Assembly: GCF_003201835.2 (NCBI RefSeq)
Contig: NZ_CP029289.2
Coordinates: 2,510,378 to 2,534,377, forward strand
DNA: 24,000 nt
Direction of reading: 5' to 3'
From: Acidianus brierleyi
GTDB taxonomy: Archaea > Thermoproteota > Thermoprotei_A > Sulfolobales > Sulfolobaceae
In this document: positions 1-24,000 of the stretch, piece after piece
Layout of the letters: each line of letters begins with the position of its first letter
How positions within the stretch are numbered: the first letter of the stretch is position 1
Position numbers and translations under genes: made by a program
Notes under the pieces: model-generated
Told to the model about the DNA's origin: nothing
What the model saw: only the letters and a program-made list of their open reading frames with translations
Databases searched by the model: none

Positions 1-165
1 TGCTCCTGTCGGTTCGACCACTATTGTGTTTAGTTTCACTTTTAGTATTTCTTCATAACCCTTCTTGTTGTTCTCGTAGACCCTCCCCTCACTCGTTACT
101 AGATGATCTTTTGATATGTCTATTCCTAGGATCCCTACCTCTTTATCACACCTATATCCGTGCAT
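1..165 (-). CDS. IS110-family (DEDD-type) transposase/recombinase, N-terminal 55 codons only; the CDS runs off the left edge of the window
   Basis: Absent from the ORF track because it is short. Reverse-strand translation from ATG at 165-163 is open to position 1: MHGYRCDKEVGILGIDISKDHLVTSEGRVYENNKKGYEEILKVKLNTIVVEPTGA. The GIDxSK...hhhhE(A/P)TG pattern is the characteristic N-terminus of the IS110 DEDD domain (compare IS621 GIDTAKEKL...CIEATGTY). Confidence 0.75.
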   Translation of the reverse strand, partial: MHGYRCDKEVGILGIDISKDHLVTSEGRVYENNKKGYEEILKVKLNTIVVEPTGA

Positions 166-294
166 ATTATCACAATGTTCAGTCCGATAGTAGGGATTTG
201 TCACGCCCCCTCTCGAAGACTTTGCTTCAGTCAAAGGGTCGACCATGTTTCCCAGTTGGAGAGTATTACTCTCCCCAACTAATTAATCTATATA
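166..294 (-). ncRNA. 5' non-coding leader directly upstream of the IS110-family recombinase; candidate bridge-RNA-type region (extent uncertain)
   Basis: No plausible ORF. Contains an imperfect hairpin, agttgg(gg)agagt / actctccaact (about 258-284), and other short stems. IS110-group elements are known to encode their guide (bridge) RNA in the non-coding end upstream of the recombinase. Boundaries and transcription are not shown by the sequence alone. Confidence 0.3.
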
Positions 295-1012
295 GGTTCA
301 AAGGGGGCGGAAGACTCCATCCGTAAGGGTGGAGATGAATAGGCTCCACATGCTTCGCCTCTAACATGGCTAGGCGATAGCTTGAAGAGCCGAGGAAACC
401 ACTCGATAGAGGTTAACTTTAGGATCTTCACTTTGTATGTGTAATACTCTTTTTCTAATTCTTGAATTTTTCTATAATACGCGTTGTATTGTTAATTTTG
501 TTAGGAGATAGTGCGAACTAACTATGAGAACGTCCCCTTAAATTTTTGCACACTCCTACTCGGGATGTTGTCCCACATGTTAGATCGCGGGGGACGTATA
601 GCCAGCCTCCCACATGGGGTTTTATCCCCATGCCCACTTTCGGCTTGTGTTATTTTCTTGTTCTCTTTATAAAAGTTTTACTCTTGTAAGGCTTGTCTTC
701 TTGTTTAGGAGTGTTGTTCGTGAAAATCGCCGTAGGAGCCCCCTTTGTAGTTACATTTAAATACGTATTTTTCAAATATTCTCTTAATGGCAGTCACTGA
801 CGGAGTAAGCGTCACTGAGACGCCTTGGTTAAAGCGAGGGTCTATGTGGTACGCCTCTGCTCCATTCAACAGTCCCATATTGGGATACTGTGGGTTCACA
901 TTAGTGCTCGGGGTCGGAACGACCCTTAGTGCCTGTGGAGCTGAGACCTCTACCTTTGGCAAGCCTCGGCTTTGAAGCAGGAAGCCACGTCCGTTAGGGC
1001 GGAGTAGTTCAC
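295..1012 (-). repeat. GC-rich structured repeat, composite copy A: B-type interior (738-1003) plus C-type interior (341-737) plus shared 3' hairpin module (295-340)
   Basis: Read on the minus strand it starts GTGAACTAC (1012-1004) and ends ...CCCCCTTTGAACC (to 295). Positions 738-1012 are near-identical to 5203-5480 over about 250 nt; ORF-track peptides are identical on both strands. The ends of 341-737 match 9311-9493 (about 57 nt each side, 1-2 mismatches). Markedly more GC-rich than flanking DNA. Confidence 0.85.
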
Positions 1013-1883
1013 CATTGCCGCAATACCCCCAATTATACTTCTATTATTAAGAAGAAAAATGCCAGAGAGTATCAGATGGGCCGCCGAAGTAGGGAATAAG
1101 AAAAAAGTAGAGGAAGCCGTAAAGAGACTGGAGAAATGTGGCTTAGAACCTGAGGTTAATTTTGACGCAATTCAAGAAGACAAACCTACATTAAAGCAAA
1201 ATCTCAAAGCATTCTTCAGTAGGACATATGCTAGACAAGTAGCCTTCATTTTCTGGATTGGTGCAGCATACGCTTTGACAGTCAACTTAGTTTCAGTATA
1301 CTCTAGTAAGGTTCTCTCAGATTTAGGAGCTTCGTCCTTTGAATCCCTATTAGGTACTCTGAGTATAGATATTTTAGGAACTTTTGGAGTTTTAATAACA
1401 GTATTTGCGGCGGACAAATTAGGGAGAAAGGTCCTAGGCACACTAGGTTTTGGACTTTCTGCAATTCCATTGGCGGTACTTTACGTGGCCTATTTGATGG
1501 GTTTCCTATCGATTCCTTTAGTAGTAGCAATGTTCTCATTATTCTTCCTTATAAATGTAGGATTTGTAGGTACTTTACAATACGTTCCAGCAGGAGAAGT
1601 ATTTCCTACAAGATTAAGGGGACTATCAGTAGGTTGGGAGAAATTATTCGAATTCGGTTTAGCTTTGCCAGCATTGTCGTTGTATGCATTTCTAGGAGTA
1701 GCGAATTCATTACTTTATGATATAATAGTTGCAATAATTGCAGCAGCAATATATTACTTCCTCTCGTTAGAAACTAAACAAATGCCATTAGAAGAGATAC
1801 AAAGAAGATATACTGGAAATGAAGGAATACCTAGCTTTGCATTAAAAGACATAGCAAGAAGCAAGGATAAGGATAAGTTATAA
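1008..1883 (+). pseudogene. MFS sugar-porter-type transporter, C-terminal half only; truncated by the insertion ending at 1012
   Basis: ORF 1059-1883 begins MPESIRW (the PESPRW-like loop motif after TM6 of sugar porters), followed by about 6 hydrophobic segments. The frame is open upstream to 1008 (FTIAAIPPIILLLLRRK, TM6-like) and breaks exactly at the repeat terminus (1004-1012). No N-terminal half is present in the window. Confidence 0.7.
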
Positions 1884-4561: not shown

Positions 4562-5086
4562 TTATGTTTTTATTTTATCAGGAAAATATTTTAGGAATTT
4601 AGTAATCTTTGGATCTATTATCACTCTACAATAAGGATAATTTCTATGCTTATCGTAAAAGTTATGATGATAATCCTCTGCCTCATAAAAAGCTTCAAAA
4701 GGCACAACTTCCGTAACTACTTTTTTCCCTATTTTCTTTTCTACTTCTCTTATTATTTCCTCTGCAATTTTTCTTTGCTCGTCATTATGATATAATATTA
4801 TAGATCTATATTGTGAACCAACATCGTTACCTTGCCTGTTTGGAGTTGTAGGATCGTGAATAGAGAAGAAAATTTCCAAAATATCTCTAAAAGAAATAAT
4901 ATTAGGATCAAAAGTAATTTGGACTACTTCAGCATGTCCCGTTTTGTCCGTACATACATCCTCGTACGTTGGATTAGGCACTTTTCCTCCAGAATATCCT
5001 GGTTTAACCTCAATCACTCCCTTAACTCTAGAAAAAACTGCTTCAGTGCACCAGAAACATCCTCCGCCTAATGTTGCTTTTTCCAT
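4562..5086 (-). CDS. msrA: Peptide-methionine (S)-S-oxide reductase
   Basis: N-terminal [12 protein letters not shown] active-site motif, plus [32 protein letters not shown] and [19 protein letters not shown], all canonical MsrA blocks. Confidence 0.95.
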
Positions 5087-5202
5087 GAAAGATATATGAA
5101 GTAGCTAAAATTTAACTTAGTGTTAGAAAATTTAAAATAGTTGTTTTGAAAAGATTTACTATAAACCTTTGATGAAGTTTTTGGAAAACGAATATTGTTA
5201 TC

Positions 5203-5540
5203 GTGAACTACCATGCCCTAACGGGCGTGGCTTCCTGCTTCAAAGCCGAGGCTTGCCAAAGGTAGAGGTCTCAGCTCCACAGGCACTAAGGGTCGTTCCG
5301 ACCCCGAGCACTAATGTGAACCCACAGTATCCCAATATGGGACTGTTGAATGGAGCAGAGGCGTACCACATAGACCCTCGCTTTAACCAAGGCGTCTCAG
5401 TGACGCTTACTCCGTCAGTGACTGCCATTAAGAGAATATTTGAAAAATACGTATTTAAATGTAACCACAAAGGGGGCAATCCATCTCCACCCTTACGGAT
5501 GGAGTCTTCCACCCCCTTTGAACCCCTTGTTCAGATAAAA
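5203..5540 (+). repeat. GC-rich structured repeat, copy B (simple form: 5' GTGAACTAC, B-type interior, 3' hairpin CAAAGGGGG...CCCCCTTTG, tail GAACCCCTTGTTCAGATAAAA)
   Basis: Near-identical to the reverse complement of 738-1012. Dense local stems are visible: ccatgccc/gggcgtgg, gggtcg/cgaccc, gcgtc/gacgc and caaaggggg/ccccctttg. ORFs are open on both strands, with a composition unlike the local proteome. Confidence 0.85.
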
Positions 5541-5610
5541 TACTATCGGTAAGGTATATTGACAATTTTCATCTTAAATATTTAAGAACCGCACTTCAGA
5601 TTAATTATTT

Positions 5611-6798
5611 ATGAGTGAGGATTTAATCAAGGCGCTAATCAACAACGACGAATTCAATAAGAAGATAGCTAGTATAGTCTATGAAAAAATTAGAAACGAT
5701 GTTATATTGAATAAATTTGATGATATATATAAAATATTAAATGAGCTAACTAAATCTGTCCAAAAGAACACTGATCATATAATCCTTATATGGGAGAAAA
5801 TGGATCAAACTGATAAGACTATTAATAACATTATACAATCAATTAAGGATAACACTAACGCTATAAAGGAGATGCAAAATGAGGTAAGAACGTTAAATAT
5901 TACAACACAAAAACATACTGAAGCTATAGAGTCTCTTCAGAAAAATATTGATTCACATACGAAAGCAATAGAGACAATGCAGAAAACGTTAGAAAAGCAC
6001 AGTGAAATCATCGAAACACATACGAAAGCAATAGAGACAATGCAGAAAACGTTAGAAAAGCACAGTGAAATCATCGAAACACATACGAAAGCAATAGAGA
6101 CAATGCAGAAAACGTTAGAAAAGCACAGTGAAATCATCGAAACACATACGAAAGCAATAGAGACAATGCAGAAAACGTTAGAAAAGCACAGTGAAATCAT
6201 CGAAACACATACGAAAGCAATAGAGACAATGCAGAAAACGTTAGAAAAGCACAGTGAAATCATCGAAACACATACGAAAGCAATAGAGACAATGCAGAAA
6301 ACGTTAGAAAAGCACAGTGAAATCATCGAAACACATACGAAAGCAATAGAAGAACAATCTAAGGCAATAGAGAAGTTACAAAATGCGATTTTTAGACTAA
6401 GTACAGAGATAGGTGCGTTTACTAATAGAGCAGGTAAAGGTCTAGAGAAAAGTATAATGAATATATATAGAGAAGCGTTAAAATTACATGGTATAGATCC
6501 TTCTAACGTTAAACATGGTAAAATAAAGGATACCCTAGGAATAATAGATAAGGATAAGGAGTTTGAAGTAGACTTTTATGAGACCGATGATTACGTCTAT
6601 GTTTTTGAAGTTAAGAACTATGCAGATGAGGGAGTTTTAGAACAAATGAGAAATAGAATTAAATTGTTTTCCGCATTATATAAAAAGCCTATAAAATTCT
6701 ATATTATATCTAACTTTATAGAAAAATCTGTAAAAGAAGAAGCAGAAAAAGAAGCAGCAATAATTATTACATCTCATGTTGTAGAAGACGAAGCATAA
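5611..6798 (+). CDS. Coiled-coil protein with a 21-aa tandem-repeat array and a C-terminal PD-(D/E)XK-like domain (resembles the archaeal DUF3782 + PDDEXK_10 architecture)
   Basis: 395 aa. The N-terminal two thirds are heptad-like (KAIETMQKTLEKHSEIIETHT x6). The C-terminus, EFEVDFYETDDYVYVFEVKNYA...KFYIISNFIEKSVKEEAEKEAAIIIT, fits a D...(D/E)xK nuclease-fold core. The family assignment is from memory only. Confidence 0.7.
   Translation: MSEDLIKALINNDEFNKKIASIVYEKIRNDVILNKFDDIYKILNELTKSVQKNTDHIILIWEKMDQTDKTINNIIQSIKDNTNAIKEMQNEVRTLNITTQKHTEAIESLQKNIDSHTKAIETMQKTLEKHSEIIETHTKAIETMQKTLEKHSEIIETHTKAIETMQKTLEKHSEIIETHTKAIETMQKTLEKHSEIIETHTKAIETMQKTLEKHSEIIETHTKAIETMQKTLEKHSEIIETHTKAIEEQSKAIEKLQNAIFRLSTEIGAFTNRAGKGLEKSIMNIYREALKLHGIDPSNVKHGKIKDTLGIIDKDKEFEVDFYETDDYVYVFEVKNYADEGVLEQMRNRIKLFSALYKKPIKFYIISNFIEKSVKEEAEKEAAIIITSHVVEDEA
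5954..6350 (+). repeat. Perfect 63-bp tandem repeat, 6.3 copies, in frame inside the 5611-6798 CDS
   Basis: Units start at 5954, 6017, 6080, 6143, 6206, 6269 and 6332 (partial, 19 nt). Each encodes HTKAIETMQKTLEKHSEIIET. The antisense ORF 5937-6326 also repeats exactly, which indicates nucleotide identity between units. Confidence 0.95.
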
Positions 6799-9301: not shown

Positions 9302-9550
9302 GTGAACTCCTCCTACGGCGATTTTCACGAACAACACTCCTAAACAAGAAGACAAGCTTTACAAGAGTGAGACTAAGAAGACTAGGTATAGGGGAGGAGG
9401 TGGTGAAGGCCCTCAAGTTGACCCCAATCAAGTAGTTCCTTCGGCTCTTCAAGCTATCGCCTAGCCATGTTAGAGGCAAAGCATGTGGAGCCTATCCATC
9501 TCCACGGATGGAGTCTTTCGCCTCGTTTGAACCCCCTGTTAAGATAAAAA
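9302..9550 (+). repeat. GC-rich structured repeat, copy C (5' GTGAACTCC, C-type interior 9311-9493, shared 3' hairpin module, tail GAACCCCCTGTTAAGATAAAA)
   Basis: The first and last ~57 nt of the 9311-9493 interior match the reverse complement of the corresponding ends of 341-737, and the 3' module 9494-9535 matches 295-340. The middle differs (about 68 nt here versus about 280 nt in copy A). The 3' module also matches 5481-5526. Confidence 0.85.
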
Positions 9551-18926: not shown

Positions 18927-19262
18927 CCCAGTCTCATAAGGGGATACTGTAGGCTCACTGCTCGGAGTCGGAACGATCCTCATTGTCTTTGTAGAAATAT
19001 AAAAAATCTAATATGGTACTTGGAAATTTATAAAAATTATCATATAATTATCTAACTAATTACATTAAATCTTTACGAACCACTAATAACAAATAAAAAT
19101 TATTTTTACTAATTAGATTTTGGGTCTACCGTAACCAAGGCGGTGACGCTTACTCCGTCAGTGACTGCCATTAAGAGAATATTCGAAAAAAGAAGTATTA
19201 AGCCTTACAAAGGGGGCTATCTATCTCCACGGAGTCTTCCGCTCCCTTTGAACCCCTGATCA
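18927..19262. repeat. GC-rich structured repeat, copy D: decayed and rearranged (18927-18985 in minus orientation, 19131-19262 in plus orientation, AT-rich filler between)
   Basis: 18927-18985 matches the reverse complement of 5290-5350 with many substitutions. 19131-19262 matches 5384-5535, including the 3' hairpin (caaaggggg...ccctttgaacccctg), but has a 5-nt deletion relative to copy B (ggcgTCTCAgtgacgc versus ggcggtgacgc). Confidence 0.6.
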
Positions 19263-19358
19263 TAATAAAGTCTTATAGTGCAAACTTACAAGATTTTTGG
19301 CTCTTTACAGACAATATTCAACGAACAAAATTTAATATATGGATTTTTTATATCACTT

Positions 19359-21557
19359 ATGAAAGCTTACAAGATAATTTTTTCTGGTATAGTTCAAGGT
19401 GTAGGATTCAGGCCATTTATTTATAGAATAGCTGTTAAATCAGGAGTAAGAGGATACGTAAGGAATTTAGGAGGAAGCGAAGTAGAAGTCAAGATTGTAG
19501 GAAAAGAAGAAAATATAGCAGAATTCATGTCATTATTTTTCTTAAAATTACCTTCTCCTGCAAAAATAGAAAAAATTATAGTAGAAGATAGTGAAATAGA
19601 GAATTTTAAGGAATTCCAGATTTTAAAGAGCGGGAGCACAATTAAGGAAGTTGGAGAAATACCTCCGGACTTATCAGTATGTGACGAATGCATGAAGGAA
19701 GTTTTAAACGAAAAAGACAGACATTACATGTATCCATTTAATAGTTGCGCATACTGCGGACCAAAGTTTTCAATAATATATAAGTTACCCTACGATAGAG
19801 AAAACACTTCCATGAAAGATTTTCCTATGTGTTCTTCTTGTCAGAAAGAATATGAAGATCCGGAAAACGAAAGAAGATTTGACGCTCAAGGAATAAGCTG
19901 TCCAATTTGTGGACCTAAATTATTTCTCGAAGATATTAAAGGAGAAAGAATAGAAGGAGATCCTATAGCCCTTACTGCAAAGCTCATAGAAGAAGGAAAA
20001 ATAGTAGCAATTAAAGGCATTGGAGGATTCCACATAGCTATAGATCCGTTTAACGATGATGTAATTATAAGACTAAGAGAAAGAAAAAAGAGACCACAAC
20101 AACCTTTTGCCCTCATGGCAATCTCTACTGATGTCATAAAGAAATACGCAGAAGTGTCGGAAATAGAAGAAGAAATTCTACGTTCGCCGGAAAGACCAAT
20201 ATTACTACTCAAAAAAAGAGAATCAATTTCAAAATACATTTCCCCAGGATTGGACAGAGATGGATTTTTCCTTTATTATACTCCTCTACATTATCTCCTC
20301 CTCAACTCTCTGAAGAATAAAATTTCAGTGATGACAAGCGGAAATATTCACGGCTTACCTATGTGCATTGACGAAGAATGTGTTAAAGATAAATTGAAAG
20401 ACGTTGTGGATTACGTACTTTACCATAATAGGAAAATTGTTCACAGAGTTGACGATAGCGTAATGAGGATCTCATCACGAAGGATAATTATGTTACGAAG
20501 AAGTAGAGGATTTGCACCTACATGGATAAGAATAAAGAAGAAGGTGGAGCCAACAATAGCTTTAGGAGCAGAACTTCAAAACACTGGAGCAATAGCTTTT
20601 GACGATAAGGTTATACTCACACCTTATGTTGGAGATACTGACAAACTGGAAAACTTAGAAGAAATGGAAAACAGTATAAGGTTCCTTTTAAATACCTATT
20701 CAATAAAACCTAAATATGTAATAGCAGATAAAAATCCAGCTTATCAAAGCCTCAGACTAGCTAAAAAATTTTCAGAAGAATTTTCGGCTGAATTTTATCA
20801 AGTTCAGCACCATTTTGCTCATGGGTTAAGCGTAGCTGCAGAAAAAGGAGTAGATGAGGGAGTAATAATAGCTATAGACGGAATAGGTTATGGAGACGAT
20901 GGAAACGGTTGGGGAGGTGAGATAATAAAATTTGAAGGAAGTAAATATTCAAGAGAATATCACTTAAGGTATGTTAATTACGCAGGAGGAGACATAAACG
21001 CAAAGAAGCCCGATAGAATGTTAGCTTTATTCCTATCTAATTTCCTTTCGTGGGAAGAAATAAAAAAACATGTAAAACTATCTGAAAAAGAAATAAAAAT
21101 CCTAGAAATGCAATCAAAAAAATCGTCATTGTATACCTCAAGTGTTGGAAGATTTCTTGACGCAGTTTCGGCATTTTTAGATGTTTGCCATGAAAGAACA
21201 TATGAAGGAGAACCTGCAATAAAACTTGAGGCGATGAAAGGAAGAATATTAGATTTCGATTTCCCTATAAAAGGAGAAGAAATAGACACAATAGAAGCGT
21301 TCAAATGGTTTTTAAACAATAATTTAAGGAAAGAGGATATTGCTACAACCCTACAATATAAGCTAGGAGAAGCATTAGTTAATGCTGCCGAGAGACTGAA
21401 TCCGGAAAGAATCTTAGTTTCCGGAGGAGCTTCAGTAAACGAATATATATTAAAAGGTATATTAGACAACGCAAAAGCGGAAGTGTTAACGCTCAGTAAA
21501 GTTCCACCAGGAGACGGCGGAATATCTTTAGGTCAAAGTTACTTTAAAGTGTTGTAA
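19359..21557 (+). CDS. hypF: [NiFe]-hydrogenase maturation carbamoyltransferase HypF
   Basis: Acylphosphatase domain ([19 protein letters not shown]). Two zinc-finger pairs (CDECMKEV...CAYCGPKFS; CSSCQKEY...CPICGPKL). YrdC-like block ([16 protein letters not shown]), then a Kae1/HypF C-terminal block ([21 protein letters not shown]). ATG 19359 is preferred over the track's GTG 19278. Confidence 0.95.
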
Positions 21558-21574
21558 TATTCTATCGGATATAT

Positions 21575-24000
21575 CTTTCAATTCCTTTTTGGATGAAACT
21601 CCACTTTTTCGTAATTTCTCATAAAGCATTTAAAGATTTCTTTCAATTCCTTTTTGGATGAAACCCCGGCGAAGAGCCCTTGCTGGGCTCTCCCGGGTAC
21701 GAGGACTTTCAATTCCTTTTTGGATGAAACGTAGTTTAGGCGTAGAGTTGGAGGGCGTTATGCCCTACTTTCAATTCCTTTTTGGATGAAACTGCGTTGG
21801 TATGCAGAAATATTGCCTATAGTTACCGAAGACTTTCAATTCCTTTTTGGATGAAACAAATATTCAAACTGATAACGGCGGAATATATTTAGCTTACTCT
21901 TTCAATTCCTTTTTGGATGAAACGTATGGTATTATCAAATGGTGAAAAAAATGGGAAACGAAACCTTTCAATTCCTTTTTGGATAAAACTTGAGGACTTC
22001 CAGGGGGGATATTACTATATCCCCTACAACTTTCAATTCCTTCTTGGATAAAACTTATTCAACACCTGCAGCAAGGTATCCAGCTAATTCAACTTTCAAT
22101 TCCTTCTTGGATGAAACAAAAGGTCTAATTCAAAGAAAGAGCGTAAAGGATATCATAAACTTTCAATTCCTTCTTGGATGAAACATTGTAAATGGGTTTA
22201 GCCCAAGCATGTTAAGTCAAAATTCCTTTCAATTCCTTCTTGGATGAAACTTATGAGTTTAAGAGAGACGCCATAAGGAAGCTAATGGAAAAATACTTTC
22301 AATTCCTTCTTGGATGAAACAATGAATAAGTATGTGACAAACGGGTTCAGCCCGAGTATGATACTTTCAATTCCTTCTTGGATGAAACATACTATACGTA
22401 TCGTATGACGACGGGTTTGAAAAAGACTTCTTTCAATTCCTTCTTGGATGAAACACATGATGAATATGAACCGTTTGCAAGCGCTAAATTAGAAATCTTT
22501 CAATTCCTTCTTGGATGAAACCTGAGGTTATTGTCTTAAAACTTAATGATTTTGATAAGATAACTTTCAATTCCTTCTTGGATGAAACTTCTTCTCCTCC
22601 GACATGTCTCATTCACCTCTCATATTTAACACTTTCAATTCCTTCTTGGATGAAACCTGTTTATTTCTTTTAATTCCAATAGATTTTTTGTACTGATTCT
22701 TTCAATTCCTTCTTGGATGAAACCATTTAAATATTAGTTAGGTCTTAATGTAACATGATAAACACTTTCAATTCCTTCTTGGATGAAACAAGTGATGGCA
22801 AGGGAAGGCACAAAAATGATGAGTATTGACTTTCAATTCCTTCTTGGATGAAACCTTATATCATTCGGCTGTTCCTCTGGGGTCTATAGAAAAACCTTTC
22901 AATTCCTTCTTGGATGAAACTACAATACGGTTCATTACCAGACGCGTTAATAAAATCACTTTCAATTCCTTCTTGGATGAAACTCAAAATAAGTCAAATT
23001 TAGATCAACAATTAAATCAAATTTTCTTTCAATTCCTTCTTGGATGAAACTAAAATCAAGGGGGGAAATATGGTTGAGTTTAACAAAGCGGCTTTCAATT
23101 CCTTCTTGGATGAAACATATCGATTTGTCACATAAGAATTTTGACTTTTTAACTTTCAATTCCTTCTTGGATGAAACGTCCCTAAGTGAATTACTTAGGG
23201 ACATAGTGTTTGAATATATCTTTCAATTCCTTCTTGGATGAAACTTCCCAAAGAATGCCAATGGGTGGCGGAGCTGGAAAAAATTCTTTCAATTCCTTCT
23301 TGGATGAAACATAAATTCATTAACTACCGTAACCGTTGGGCAATATATAACTGCCTTTCAATTCCTTCTTGGATGAAACCTTAAAGAAATTGCAAATTGG
23401 GTTGGGGCAAGATCATTTAGCTTTCAATTCCTTCTTGGATGAAACATAATGACATACTAGTAATAGTGTACCCAAGTCTGCATGATATCTTTCAATTCCT
23501 TCTTGGATGAAACCTACTGAGCTCGAAAGTTTTGGGTGTGCCTCTGGGGTCTATCTTTCAATTCCTTCTTGGATGAAACAGTAAGGACTTACAGTGCGGA
23601 AACCGGGAAACCGGTGGCCTTTCAATTCCTTCTTGGATGAAACTTGCTACCTTCATTTGTGAGCCACCTCAACGACAATTATTTCTTTCAATTCCTTCTT
23701 GGATGAAACAGGAGGACTATAAACGCACTATATATTGACGTTGTAATGATCTTTCAATTCCTTCTTGGATGAAACACAAAAAGGGATGGAGGTTTTTTTA
23801 CAACCTCCTAAAAAAGACTTTCAATTCCTTCTTGGATGAAACTCTTCTGCTTCCATAAAATCATATCCAGCAAAAAGTTTTCGCTTTCAATTCCTTCTTG
23901 GATGAAACAGAAAAATTAAAGATAAAATTAGCTAAAGAATAATAAATCTTTCAATTCCTTCTTGGATGAAACCTATTTAGTGTCACAATGCAACGACTGG
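21575..24000 (-). CRISPR. CRISPR array, 37 repeats of 25 nt in the window (it continues past 24000), spacers 36-45 nt. Transcribed-strand repeat is GTTTCATCCAAGAAGGAATTGAAAG
   Basis: Repeats start at 21575, 21640, 21706, 21768, 21833, 21899, 21965, 22030, 22093, 22160, 22226, 22296, 22364, 22430, 22497, 22564, 22632, 22699, 22765, 22830, 22896, 22959, 23026, 23092, 23153, 23220, 23286, 23355, 23421, 23489, 23555, 23619, 23685, 23751, 23818, 23884 and 23948. The minus-strand reading ends in ATTGAAAG, the known 8-nt crRNA 5' handle source in Sulfolobales. Variant repeats at the 21575 end mark the trailer. Confidence 0.98.

Follow-up and report, generated by a model that had tools for sequence, protein, structure and literature searches.

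Results

A probable pile-up of mobile elements in a transporter gene

The DNA analysed here is a stretch of 24,000 nucleotides (nt) of Acidianus brierleyi (contig NZ_CP029289.2, positions 2,510,378 to 2,534,377), which we refer to as the window. Its first 165 nt encode, on the minus strand, the N-terminal 55 codons of an IS110-family recombinase resembling those of the insertion sequences (IS) ISC1228 and ISC1229, the remainder of the element lying to the left of the window. From 1013 to 1883 (plus strand) extends the C-terminal half of a disrupted major facilitator superfamily (MFS)/sugar-transporter gene, whose frame is open from 1014 with an ATG called at 1059, and whose product matches the Pfam family Sugar_tr (E=9.2e-20) at profile positions 191-451 of 452 only. 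Sequence comparisons suggest, with a probability that we estimate at about 0.8, that within 1-1012 three mobile elements are piled up inside the MFS gene, one of them an IS110 remnant with a candidate bridge RNA. What the sequences show are boundaries and junctions, homologies, CT and CC core dinucleotides, relations between loops and flanks, and the nesting order: a tnpB-derived element (295-342 and 739-1012, plus strand) is interrupted by an ISSto4-like IS110 derivative without recombinase gene (343-738, minus strand), and is truncated at its left end by the ISC1228-like IS (1-294, minus strand).

The region between the recombinase fragment and the transporter gene (166-1012) has a GC content of 0.453 as against 0.311 in the rest of the window. 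Its open reading frames (ORFs) are all short and without a family match, and Pfam searches with 705-962 (minus strand) and 5169-5552 (plus strand) gave no match. The GC-richness and the lack of a credible ORF had been pointed out in an earlier note on this DNA, and both observations hold. The note had also described the region as dense in stems; hairpins do occur, but the most GC- and stem-rich part (873-1012, GC 0.557) is structured in the plus sense, opposite to the recombinase. It was likewise right in saying that the region is built of modules found separately in the window: 738-1015 corresponds to 5200-5477 (98%), 295-347 to 5472-5524, 329-431 to 9403-9505 and 674-738 to 9310-9374, and modules of 166-1012 recur at 5200-5540, 9310-9549 and 19132-19270.

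The principal proposal of the note was that 166-1012, about 850 nt, is one long and elaborate guide region of the recombinase at 1-165. Such an interpretation would agree with the ORF-free, GC- and stem-rich character of the stretch and with the usual location of the bridge RNA upstream of the recombinase in the IS110 group, but comparison with other copies makes it extremely improbable. Homology among the copies of this IS ends at 294/295 in three contexts, and only 166-294 belongs to it; the units that make up 295-1012 are independent elements, which occur alone elsewhere in the window and at more than 50 metagenome loci, an arrangement that the note itself had regarded as contrary to its proposal. 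In addition, 739-1007 is missing from a near-identical strain (metagenome contig L002), and no complementarity of 166-1012 to the flank from 1013 onward was found (no 8-mer match to 1013-1052, which is below the chance expectation). The alternative offered in the note, that the IS is nested in another element, was correct, and position 1012 is a genuine boundary, as described in the next section.

The tnpB-derived element

Positions 295-342 and 739-1012 (plus strand) are, respectively, the left-end fragment and the body with the right end (RE) of a non-autonomous, tnpB-derived 'B-type' element of the IS605 family. When metagenomes were scanned with the conserved end GGAGTCTTYCRCYYCNTTTGAACC, 52 loci were found. 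In all of these the left end (LE) runs on as ...TTTGAACC CCTTGTTAAGATAAA, after which the flanks diverge. The window copy does not have CCTTGTTAAGATAAA, therefore the outermost 16 nt of its left end (TTTATCTTAACAAGGG-type when read from the start of the element) were removed by the ISC1228-like IS. Every copy starts with ...TTTAT|C, the flanks diverging before that motif, and at the other side the RE ends with ...GTAG(T/C)TCAC at the equivalent of position 1012 in 17 copies (...GTAGTTCAC in the window). The region 295-342 is 96% identical to 5479-5524 of the window. The LE with CTCCACCCTTACGGATGGAG and the RE with CCACGTCCGTTAGGGCGG.. contain similar subterminal hairpins on the same strand, and there are no terminal inverted repeats.

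At about ten of the metagenome loci the two ends are approximately 1.33 kb apart. In the two loci where the ORFs were read (L043 and L016) they enclose an ORF of 411-412 amino acids, in the sense corresponding to the plus strand of the window. The protein encoded by L043 (5486-6724) matches OrfB_IS605 (PF01385, 1.7e-20) and the Cas12f1-like TNB domain (PF07282, 5.8e-22), thus it is a TnpB. In these ~1.33-kb units tnpB is not accompanied by tnpA. What the window contains is a non-autonomous derivative of 338 bp, with 48 + 274 nt retained, and its positions 900-1007 can still be read as the last tnpB codons (PLVPVELRPLP...QASALKQEA..stop).

In TnpB elements the omegaRNA is encoded across the 3' end of tnpB and the RE. 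When the terminal 140 nt of 17 copies were aligned, a consensus structure of 30 pairs was predicted, five of them with changes on both sides, and compensatory changes occur in the RE hairpin. The conserved structured segment (873-1012, plus strand) is a candidate for the expected omegaRNA scaffold, whose guide would be read from 1013 onward. The GC-rich and hairpin-dense appearance of 873-1012 is due to this plus-strand structure of the tnpB 3' end and RE. It could be argued that 739-1012 is just a decayed tnpB pseudogene fragment, that its hairpins are single-stranded DNA signals for a TnpA-type transposase, and that no omegaRNA is made from this copy. Subterminal DNA hairpins are a family property of IS200/IS605 ends, and there is no TnpB gene among the ORFs of the window. 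We regard this explanation as less likely than not: the full elements have tnpB without tnpA, the conserved structure reaches about 90 nt past the terminal hairpin with compensatory changes inside coding sequence, and its position is typical for TnpB omegaRNA scaffolds.

Other forms of the element were also seen. An intact 338-bp twin is located at 5203-5540, in reverse orientation relative to the 295-1012 copy, between a methionine sulfoxide reductase gene (4562-5086) and the gene of a coiled-coil repeat protein; it has CA, not CT, at the position that is the IS110 target. A partial copy consisting of an internal segment and the left end (19132-19270) lies directly upstream of a HypF carbamoyltransferase gene (19278-21557). 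There are also 'minimal' forms of ~60 bp, in which the right and left ends are fused at the similar hairpins (L058 1238-1300, L013, L014 and L040).

An ISSto4-like IS110 derivative inserted in the tnpB-derived element

The left end of the tnpB-derived element is interrupted at 343-738 (minus strand) by an internally deleted copy of an ISSto4/ISC1491-like IS110 element ('C-type'), which has no recombinase gene. The insertion lies between GGGGG-CT and CT-ATTCATC, the uninterrupted site in tnpB-derived copies being GGGGG-CT-ATCCATC; CT as the core at either junction (737-738 and 341-342, read on the minus strand) is the signature of IS110 elements. The block is collinear with positions 4070-5585 of contig L039, which contains a full-length element with the same two ends around an IS110-family recombinase gene that is frameshifted and lies on the minus strand (295-431 at 88%, 416-738 at 96% identity). 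Intact recombinases of the L039 lineage are available (P0003, 383 amino acids, and P0004); the nearest named relatives of the lineage are ISSto4 and ISC1491, with 51-57% identity between the recombinases. In the window copy the gene was lost from about codon 9 to near the stop codon, and what is left is a left end of ~300 nt (738 to ~441) and the right end (365-343). The possibility that 432-673 is a further insertion in a short miniature inverted-repeat transposable element (MITE) was considered and rejected, since in L039 this segment is part of the left end of the parent IS110.

On the left, L039 and the copy at 9310-9533 of the window have GTGAA-CT. In L002, the metagenome contig of the near-identical strain (1-60 aligned to window 691-1020), the left terminus is joined directly to the MFS flank as GGTGAA-CT-CCTACGG. 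The 269-bp gap is bounded by CT dinucleotides (GTGAA-CT..., GGGGG-CT...) and, speculatively, could have arisen by a deletion that a recombinase mediated, or from events that took place independently at this site.

A second, shorter ISSto4-like deletion derivative is present at 9310-9549, inserted at GTGAA-CT-ATCCATC in a minimal remnant of the tnpB-derived element. It has lost the bridge-RNA motif described below, and has kept ~65 nt of the left end, a remnant of the 3' coding sequence (CDS) and the right end. In L058 an intact ISSto4-like IS110 is inserted at the right terminus of a tnpB element (GTGAA-CT-ACCCCGCCC), where it would split the omegaRNA scaffold from its guide. Two S. islandicus genomes have the same ISSto4-like element (L066/L067, 1100-1200 and 2361-2450), in which identical truncated right ends abut another IS110 gene and the left flanks differ, which suggests that the left ends were rearranged after insertion.

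A candidate bridge RNA in the left end of the ISSto4-like derivative

Characterised bridge RNAs are known from IS110/IS1111 elements of bacteria. The left end of the ISSto4-like derivative contains at 532-646 (minus strand) a two-lobed sequence of 115 nt, which, as judged from alignment, folding and the relations between loops and flanks, is a candidate for such an RNA. The left ends of ISSto4 (L059-L064), ISC1491 (L069-L071) and related elements of S. shibatae (L065), S. tengchongensis (L068) and S. islandicus (L066, L067 and L072) align with window positions 500-658 (minus strand) over ~160 nt. In the full-length elements L039, L059, L065, L068 and L069 the motif is inside the element, 110-190 nt upstream of the start codon. 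RNAalifold predicts a consensus with two internal loops, each having a closing stem and a GGGG-N6-CCCC hairpin cap; the 17 modelled stem pairs show essentially no variation among nine sequences belonging to six lineages, and the loops are the most variable columns. The minimum free energy fold of the window sequence has the same topology (z = -3.0; none of 200 shuffled sequences was as stable), and a covariance model that we built from the alignment matches the window once, at 501-658 on the minus strand, with 130 bits.

In the window the first lobe would consist of a stem (AAGCC/GGCU), a left-target loop at 630-641 (GAAAGUGGGCAU), a hairpin at 616-629 and a right-target loop at 608-615. The second would have the stem GUCCCC/GGGGAC (590-595/532-537), a hairpin at 562-574 and the right-donor guide GUAGGAG within 548-561. 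A TATA-box-like sequence, TTTTATAAA (666-674, minus strand), precedes the motif by about 20-25 nt and could be an internal archaeal promoter.

The polarity of the guides in IS621 is known: the 5' side of the target loop corresponds to the left target and core in the sense orientation, whereas the 3' sides are antisense to the core and right target, and to the core and left terminus (PMC11208160). The loops of the Sulfolobales elements show relations of the same kind to their own flanks. The left-target loop (12 nt, 5' side) matches the left flank and the first base of the core, the matches abutting the core: CCACACU/CCACACT in ISSto4 (two independent sites), UGUCCUCC/TGTCCTCC in S. shibatae, AAAGUGGGC/AAAGGGGGC in the window (8/9), UCGCAAC/TCGCATC in ISC1491 (6/7) and 5 nt in S. 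tengchongensis. The left-target guide comprises 7-8 nt in four lineages, and agreement is exact over 7, 7 and 8 nt in three. On the 3' side, the right-target loop has the antisense of core and right flank over 7, 6, 6 and 5 nt in four lineages: GUACAAG/CTTGTAC in S. tengchongensis, CAAAAG/CTTTTG in S. shibatae, UAAUAG/CTATTA in ISC1491 and AUAAG/CTTAT in ISSto4. On the 3' side of the second loop, the right-donor guide is antisense to the core and left terminus over 7-9 nt. It reads GUAGGAG/CTCCTAC in six lineages, and in ISSto4 GUGGGAGGA/TCCTCCCAC, so that the guide co-varies with the terminus of its own element. In an all-against-all table the cross-lineage pairs mostly score 2-5, the highest value being 6, and the probability that a random 12-mer and a 14-mer share at least 7 nt is ~0.004 per comparison.

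A comparison of the window with L039 is instructive in this respect. Over the first ~300 nt of the element just two positions differ by substitution, 633 and 634; they belong to the left-target loop (GGG vs GAA) and mirror the difference between the left flanks (GGGGG-CT vs GTGAA-CT), improving the match of the window loop to its own flank from 4/7 to 6/7.

Several observations weigh against the interpretation of 532-646 as a bridge RNA. The stems, being invariant, show no covariation across the aligned sequences. Rfam 15, searched with the whole window at gathering thresholds and with 1-1100 at E up to 10, returned chance-level matches only. No loop segment tracks the RE ends GTAGTGC, GTAACGC and GTGGAGC as a left-donor guide should; CAUGUGG, encountered in this search, occurs in the C-type elements only and without co-variation. 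The loops of S. islandicus L066 and L067 do not match their own left flanks (the right ends being truncated), and the right-target loop GGGAG of the window and L039 fits their own flank CT-ATCC poorly, reaching 5/7 at the CT-ACCCC of L058, the CT-ACCCCGCCC site at the right end of the tnpB element. It must also be noted that the related contigs are metagenomic, and that the agreement in L039 (AGUGAAC/AGTGAAC) covers only the 6 nt of visible flank and the core.

Some of these points would also agree with a different explanation, according to which 532-646 is a cis-acting leader, a promoter or protein-binding DNA, and the likeness between loops and flanks results from the target preference of the protein combined with chance. 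The lack of compensatory changes in the stems, the missing left-donor guide and the mismatch of some copies with their own flanks (L066/L067, and the right-target side of the window) would be easy to understand in this way. We nevertheless think it rather improbable, as the variable positions fall exactly in the internal loops while the stems are fixed, the loop of each lineage fits its own flank but not those of other lineages, to the left as well as to the right of the core and with the polarity of strands known from IS621, the right-donor loop follows the terminus of ISSto4, and both substitutions found in 300 nt are in the left-target loop and agree with the changed flank. With three of the four guide relations found and the fourth not, 532-646 is a good candidate for a sequence that behaves functionally and architecturally like an IS110-group bridge RNA. 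The suspicion voiced in the earlier note, that this region contains an uncharacterised bridge RNA of the Sulfolobales, was thus probably right, but for other coordinates (532-646, minus strand) and for a neighbouring element, the ISSto4-like derivative without recombinase gene.

The ISC1228-like IS and its possible short bridge RNA

Translation of the minus strand from 165 to 1 yields MHGYRCDKEVGILGIDISKDHLVTSEGRVYENNKKGYEEILKVKLNTIVVEPTGA, which opens with MHGYRCDKEVGILGIDISKDHL, contains the GIDxSK motif and closes with VVEPTGA. The 55-amino-acid fragment is 85% identical to the degenerate copies in L001, L004 and L057, and practically identical to residues 28-82 of P0146, a 353-amino-acid IS110 protein present in roughly 30 copies in A. 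brierleyi, and to the ISC1228/ISC1229 group in general. These three copies extend into Transposase_20 (PF02371, Pfam E=1.1e-25, with the ...ERSGK... motif in L001), a part that is outside the window; PF01548 scored 24.8 bits on the matching part of L001, under the cut-off of 29. P0146 has both IS110 Pfam domains, and PF01548 is among the precomputed matches of P0146 and other near-identical full proteins. With the fragment by itself Pfam gave no matches, a homologue search returned just two short fragments, and a scan of the genome collection found a single locus, a decayed copy on a contig of a metagenome-assembled genome labelled Marsarchaeota. No match to ISC1229 was found by tblastn in the plasmid collection, and viral contigs scanned for the ISC1228-type hairpin and for the end of the tnpB element contained neither. 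Recovery of the contig to the left was attempted through neighbouring proteins: a 119-amino-acid protein was present only on short metagenome contigs that break in repeats, and a 364-amino-acid MFS_1 protein had no record.

The left terminus of the IS is at 247-294 (minus strand), with TATATAGATTAATTAG at 279-294 and a 5' hairpin at 254-280 (z = -2.6 for the fold of the hairpin region). Homology with L001, L004, L057 and the ISC1228 copy L073 (four copies, three contexts) stops at 294/295 (CC|TATATAG), therefore the flagged IS110 unit ends at about 294 and the rest is something else. In the window and in related copies TATATAG(A/G)TTAATTAG is preceded by CC, and the sequence before the CC is unrelated. 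The right end, known from other copies only, is ...TTATTACTGAACG-CC; the right junction and the remaining recombinase of the window copy fall outside the window. The same core dinucleotide is found at both junctions (CC-TATATAG in the window, L001 and L073; ...GAACG-CC in L001, L004 and L073), and there are no terminal inverted repeats.

The earlier note had placed the start of the recombinase at 165. The translation and the relatives agree with an IS110 N-terminus on the minus strand there, but the frame is open to an ATG at 246, which is the annotated start in relatives, so 165 may not be the start. Positions 166-246 (minus strand) can thus be an in-frame upstream extension, MVDPLTEAKSSRGGVTNPYYRTEHCDN, and alternatively or in addition part of a short bridge RNA. 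Within 151-294 the candidate RNA would have, besides the 5' hairpin (254-280), a loop-hairpin-loop unit, composed of a 5' target-like loop (229-238), a hairpin (215-228) and a 3' loop (208-214), and a second unit with left-donor-like ACUGAAC (177-183) and right-donor-like AUAUAGG (151-157, just inside the CDS), between which a hairpin holds the ATG at 165. ACUGAAC is identical to the right terminus (ACTGAAC-G-CC) of the ISC1228-like element, AUAUAGG corresponds in reverse complement to CC-TATAT of the left terminus, and CCCUUUGA in the candidate corresponds to the left flank of the window, CCCTTTGA-A-CC. Both left-side matches, target and donor, end one base before the CC core.

That 166-246 is merely an N-terminal coding extension, and that the window contains no bridge RNA belonging to the flagged element, is a serious possibility, which we consider somewhat less probable than its opposite. 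Proteins of 353-357 amino acids are annotated from the ATG at 246 in many Sulfolobales genomes, in L001 and L073 the flanks disagree with the target-side loops, leaving the window copy as the only one with a fit, and our covariance model of the ISSto4-type RNA detects nothing in 166-294. The pattern of divergence points in the other direction. Between the window and ISC1228 (L073) the changes in the 81 nt are clustered at nt 8-16 (8/9) and 33-38 (5/6), with none between and no codon-position bias; correspondingly, 12 family proteins called from the upstream ATG have two hypervariable patches flanking an invariant EAKSS. Moreover, the ISC1228 and ISC1229 proteins derived from ISfinder begin at MAKGVIGIDVSK, without the extension, ACUGAAC and AUAUAGG fit the right and left termini with the polarity of a bridge RNA, and the left-side guides stop one base before CC. 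A short bridge RNA of the flagged ISC1228-like recombinase, overlapping the 5' end of its gene (151-238), is therefore possible rather than established.

Within 166-294, CCCUUUGA and GGGGGCG were also considered to match the target independently of each other. This was given less weight, because the loops are partly complementary to each other and because L001 and L073 do not fit. The orthologous decayed copies in L001/L057 and in L004, which share their left flank, have different 3' loops at the equivalent of 208-214 of the window (GAUCGGGG vs GAAAGGG), and over 10 nt (ACGCCCCCTT) the loop of L004 agrees with the right junction of L001.

Discussion

The nested arrangement can be accounted for by the following course of events. 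The 338-bp tnpB-derived element would have entered the MFS gene first, in plus orientation, with its RE end at 1012. An ISSto4-like IS110 would then have integrated, guided by its bridge RNA, at a CT in the left end of the tnpB-derived element, and lost its recombinase gene later; alternatively, a deletion derivative of the ISSto4-like IS110 may have been inserted in trans. A copy without recombinase could move only with an enzyme supplied in trans by an intact relative. The ISC1228-like IS (1-294, minus strand, continuing leftward) would have integrated 49 bp away in the same left end, after TTTGAA-CC. In this scheme the candidate bridge RNA would be transcribed and bound by a recombinase, and its element may be mobilised in trans.

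It is useful to compare the 532-646 candidate with the IS621/IS110-group bridge RNA (Durrant et al. 2024, PMC11208160). Both are located in the non-coding left end, upstream of the gene of a DEDD/serine recombinase (in the full-length relatives of the window copy), and share guides of the same polarity and a CT core on both sides; the predicted fold of the candidate has, like the IS621 RNA, two internal loops with closing stem and hairpin cap; in both cases the target is a repeated genomic element. The candidate differs from IS621 in its archaeal (Sulfolobales) host, in having no sequence or Rfam match, in that no left-donor guide was recognised, and in that the window copy lacks a recombinase. 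Also, an internal archaeal promoter, instead of a sigma-70 promoter formed at the junction, is suggested by the TATA-like box within the left end. In Supplementary Table 5 of Durrant et al. the field 'Detected Bridge RNA End' is empty for ISSto4, ISC1190, ISC1228 and ISC1229 (PMC11208160), and our full-text literature searches found no paper tying these elements, or Sulfolobales, to bridge RNAs. Some of the relatives have the generic NCBI name 'IS110 family RNA-guided transposase'.

Among the archaeal elements, ISSto4 of Sulfurisphaera tokodaii and ISC1491 of Saccharolobus solfataricus are the closest to the C-type element: besides the 51-57% identity of their recombinases to that of L039, the RNA motif can be aligned over ~160 nt and its stems are identical. 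Unlike these, the window copy is a 396-bp deletion derivative, and its loops fit the ends of tnpB elements, not the target sites of ISSto4 and ISC1491. The flagged N-terminus and left end belong to the same lineage as ISC1228 and ISC1229 of Saccharolobus solfataricus and P0146, with termini CC|TATATAG... and ...CTGAACG|CC, but in contrast to the complete elements, the window includes no more than the first 294 nt.

The tnpB-derived element is reminiscent of SMN1, a 320-bp non-autonomous element of Sulfolobus islandicus, which is mobilised by ISC1733 (PMC3718332). Like SMN1, it is an ORF-less, multi-copy derivative, ~320-340 bp long, of a Sulfolobales IS with orfB/tnpB, and has no recognisable terminal inverted repeats. 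In contrast to SMN1, the parent is a ~1.33-kb tnpB-only element and not one of 1.73 kb, and the likeness is one of general description. There are precedents for IS110-family elements that home to other mobile or repetitive DNA, namely to its conserved ends or repeats. According to references given in PMC11208160, IS4321 and IS5075 of the IS1111 family target the terminal repeats of Tn21, and for ISPpu9, which targets repetitive extragenic palindromic (REP) sequences, extra copies of its small-RNA gene (ssr9) are described away from the transposase (PMC12288879). The present case differs from these in that the targets are termini of IS605-family (TnpB) elements in an archaeon, and the orphan RNA is in a deletion derivative that keeps both IS ends.

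Taken together, the 532-646 candidate is best filed as an archaeal addition to the known IS110-group bridge RNAs; both its carrier (a non-autonomous derivative) and its target (the termini of TnpB transposons) are unusual. A wider interpretation, to which we give odds just short of even, is that the ISSto4/ISC1491 group of Sulfolobales, probably also ISC1228/ISC1229, use bridge RNAs missed by the published models. The window would then contain a 'guide-RNA MITE' with a functional bridge RNA, re-tuned by two bases in its left-target loop and mobilised in trans, and both IS110 lineages would specialise in RNA-guided homing to the termini of omegaRNA/TnpB transposons. If this is true, the bridge-RNA mechanism reaches hyperthermophilic archaea, and in a hyperthermophile one RNA-guided transposon family parasitises another, with the conserved ends of TnpB/IS605 transposons possibly serving as IS110 landing pads. 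The two point changes in the guide loop would be a case of natural retargeting, bridge-RNA modules could survive in non-autonomous derivatives, and a concrete RNA with target and donor rules would be available alongside a naturally thermostable recombinase. The locus also calls for caution in annotation: in AT-rich archaea, GC-rich and hairpin-dense 'non-coding' DNA beside a transposase gene can consist of nested elements, and structured parts of such stacks can belong to different guide-RNA systems encoded on opposite strands.

Other features of the window

ORF 5611-6798 (395 amino acids) contains at 5879-6445 at least seven tandem repeats of 63 nt (21 codons), with up to 97% identity, and has weak coiled-coil-type Pfam matches only. 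Among the ORFs scanned in the window there was no cas gene. A CRISPR array occupies 21562-24000 and runs off the end of the window. It has at least 37 repeats of the sequence CTTTCAATTCCTT(T/C)TTGGATGAAAC with a period of ~61-70 nt; the variable position is T in the first seven repeats and C in the rest, and two repeats read GGATAAAAC.

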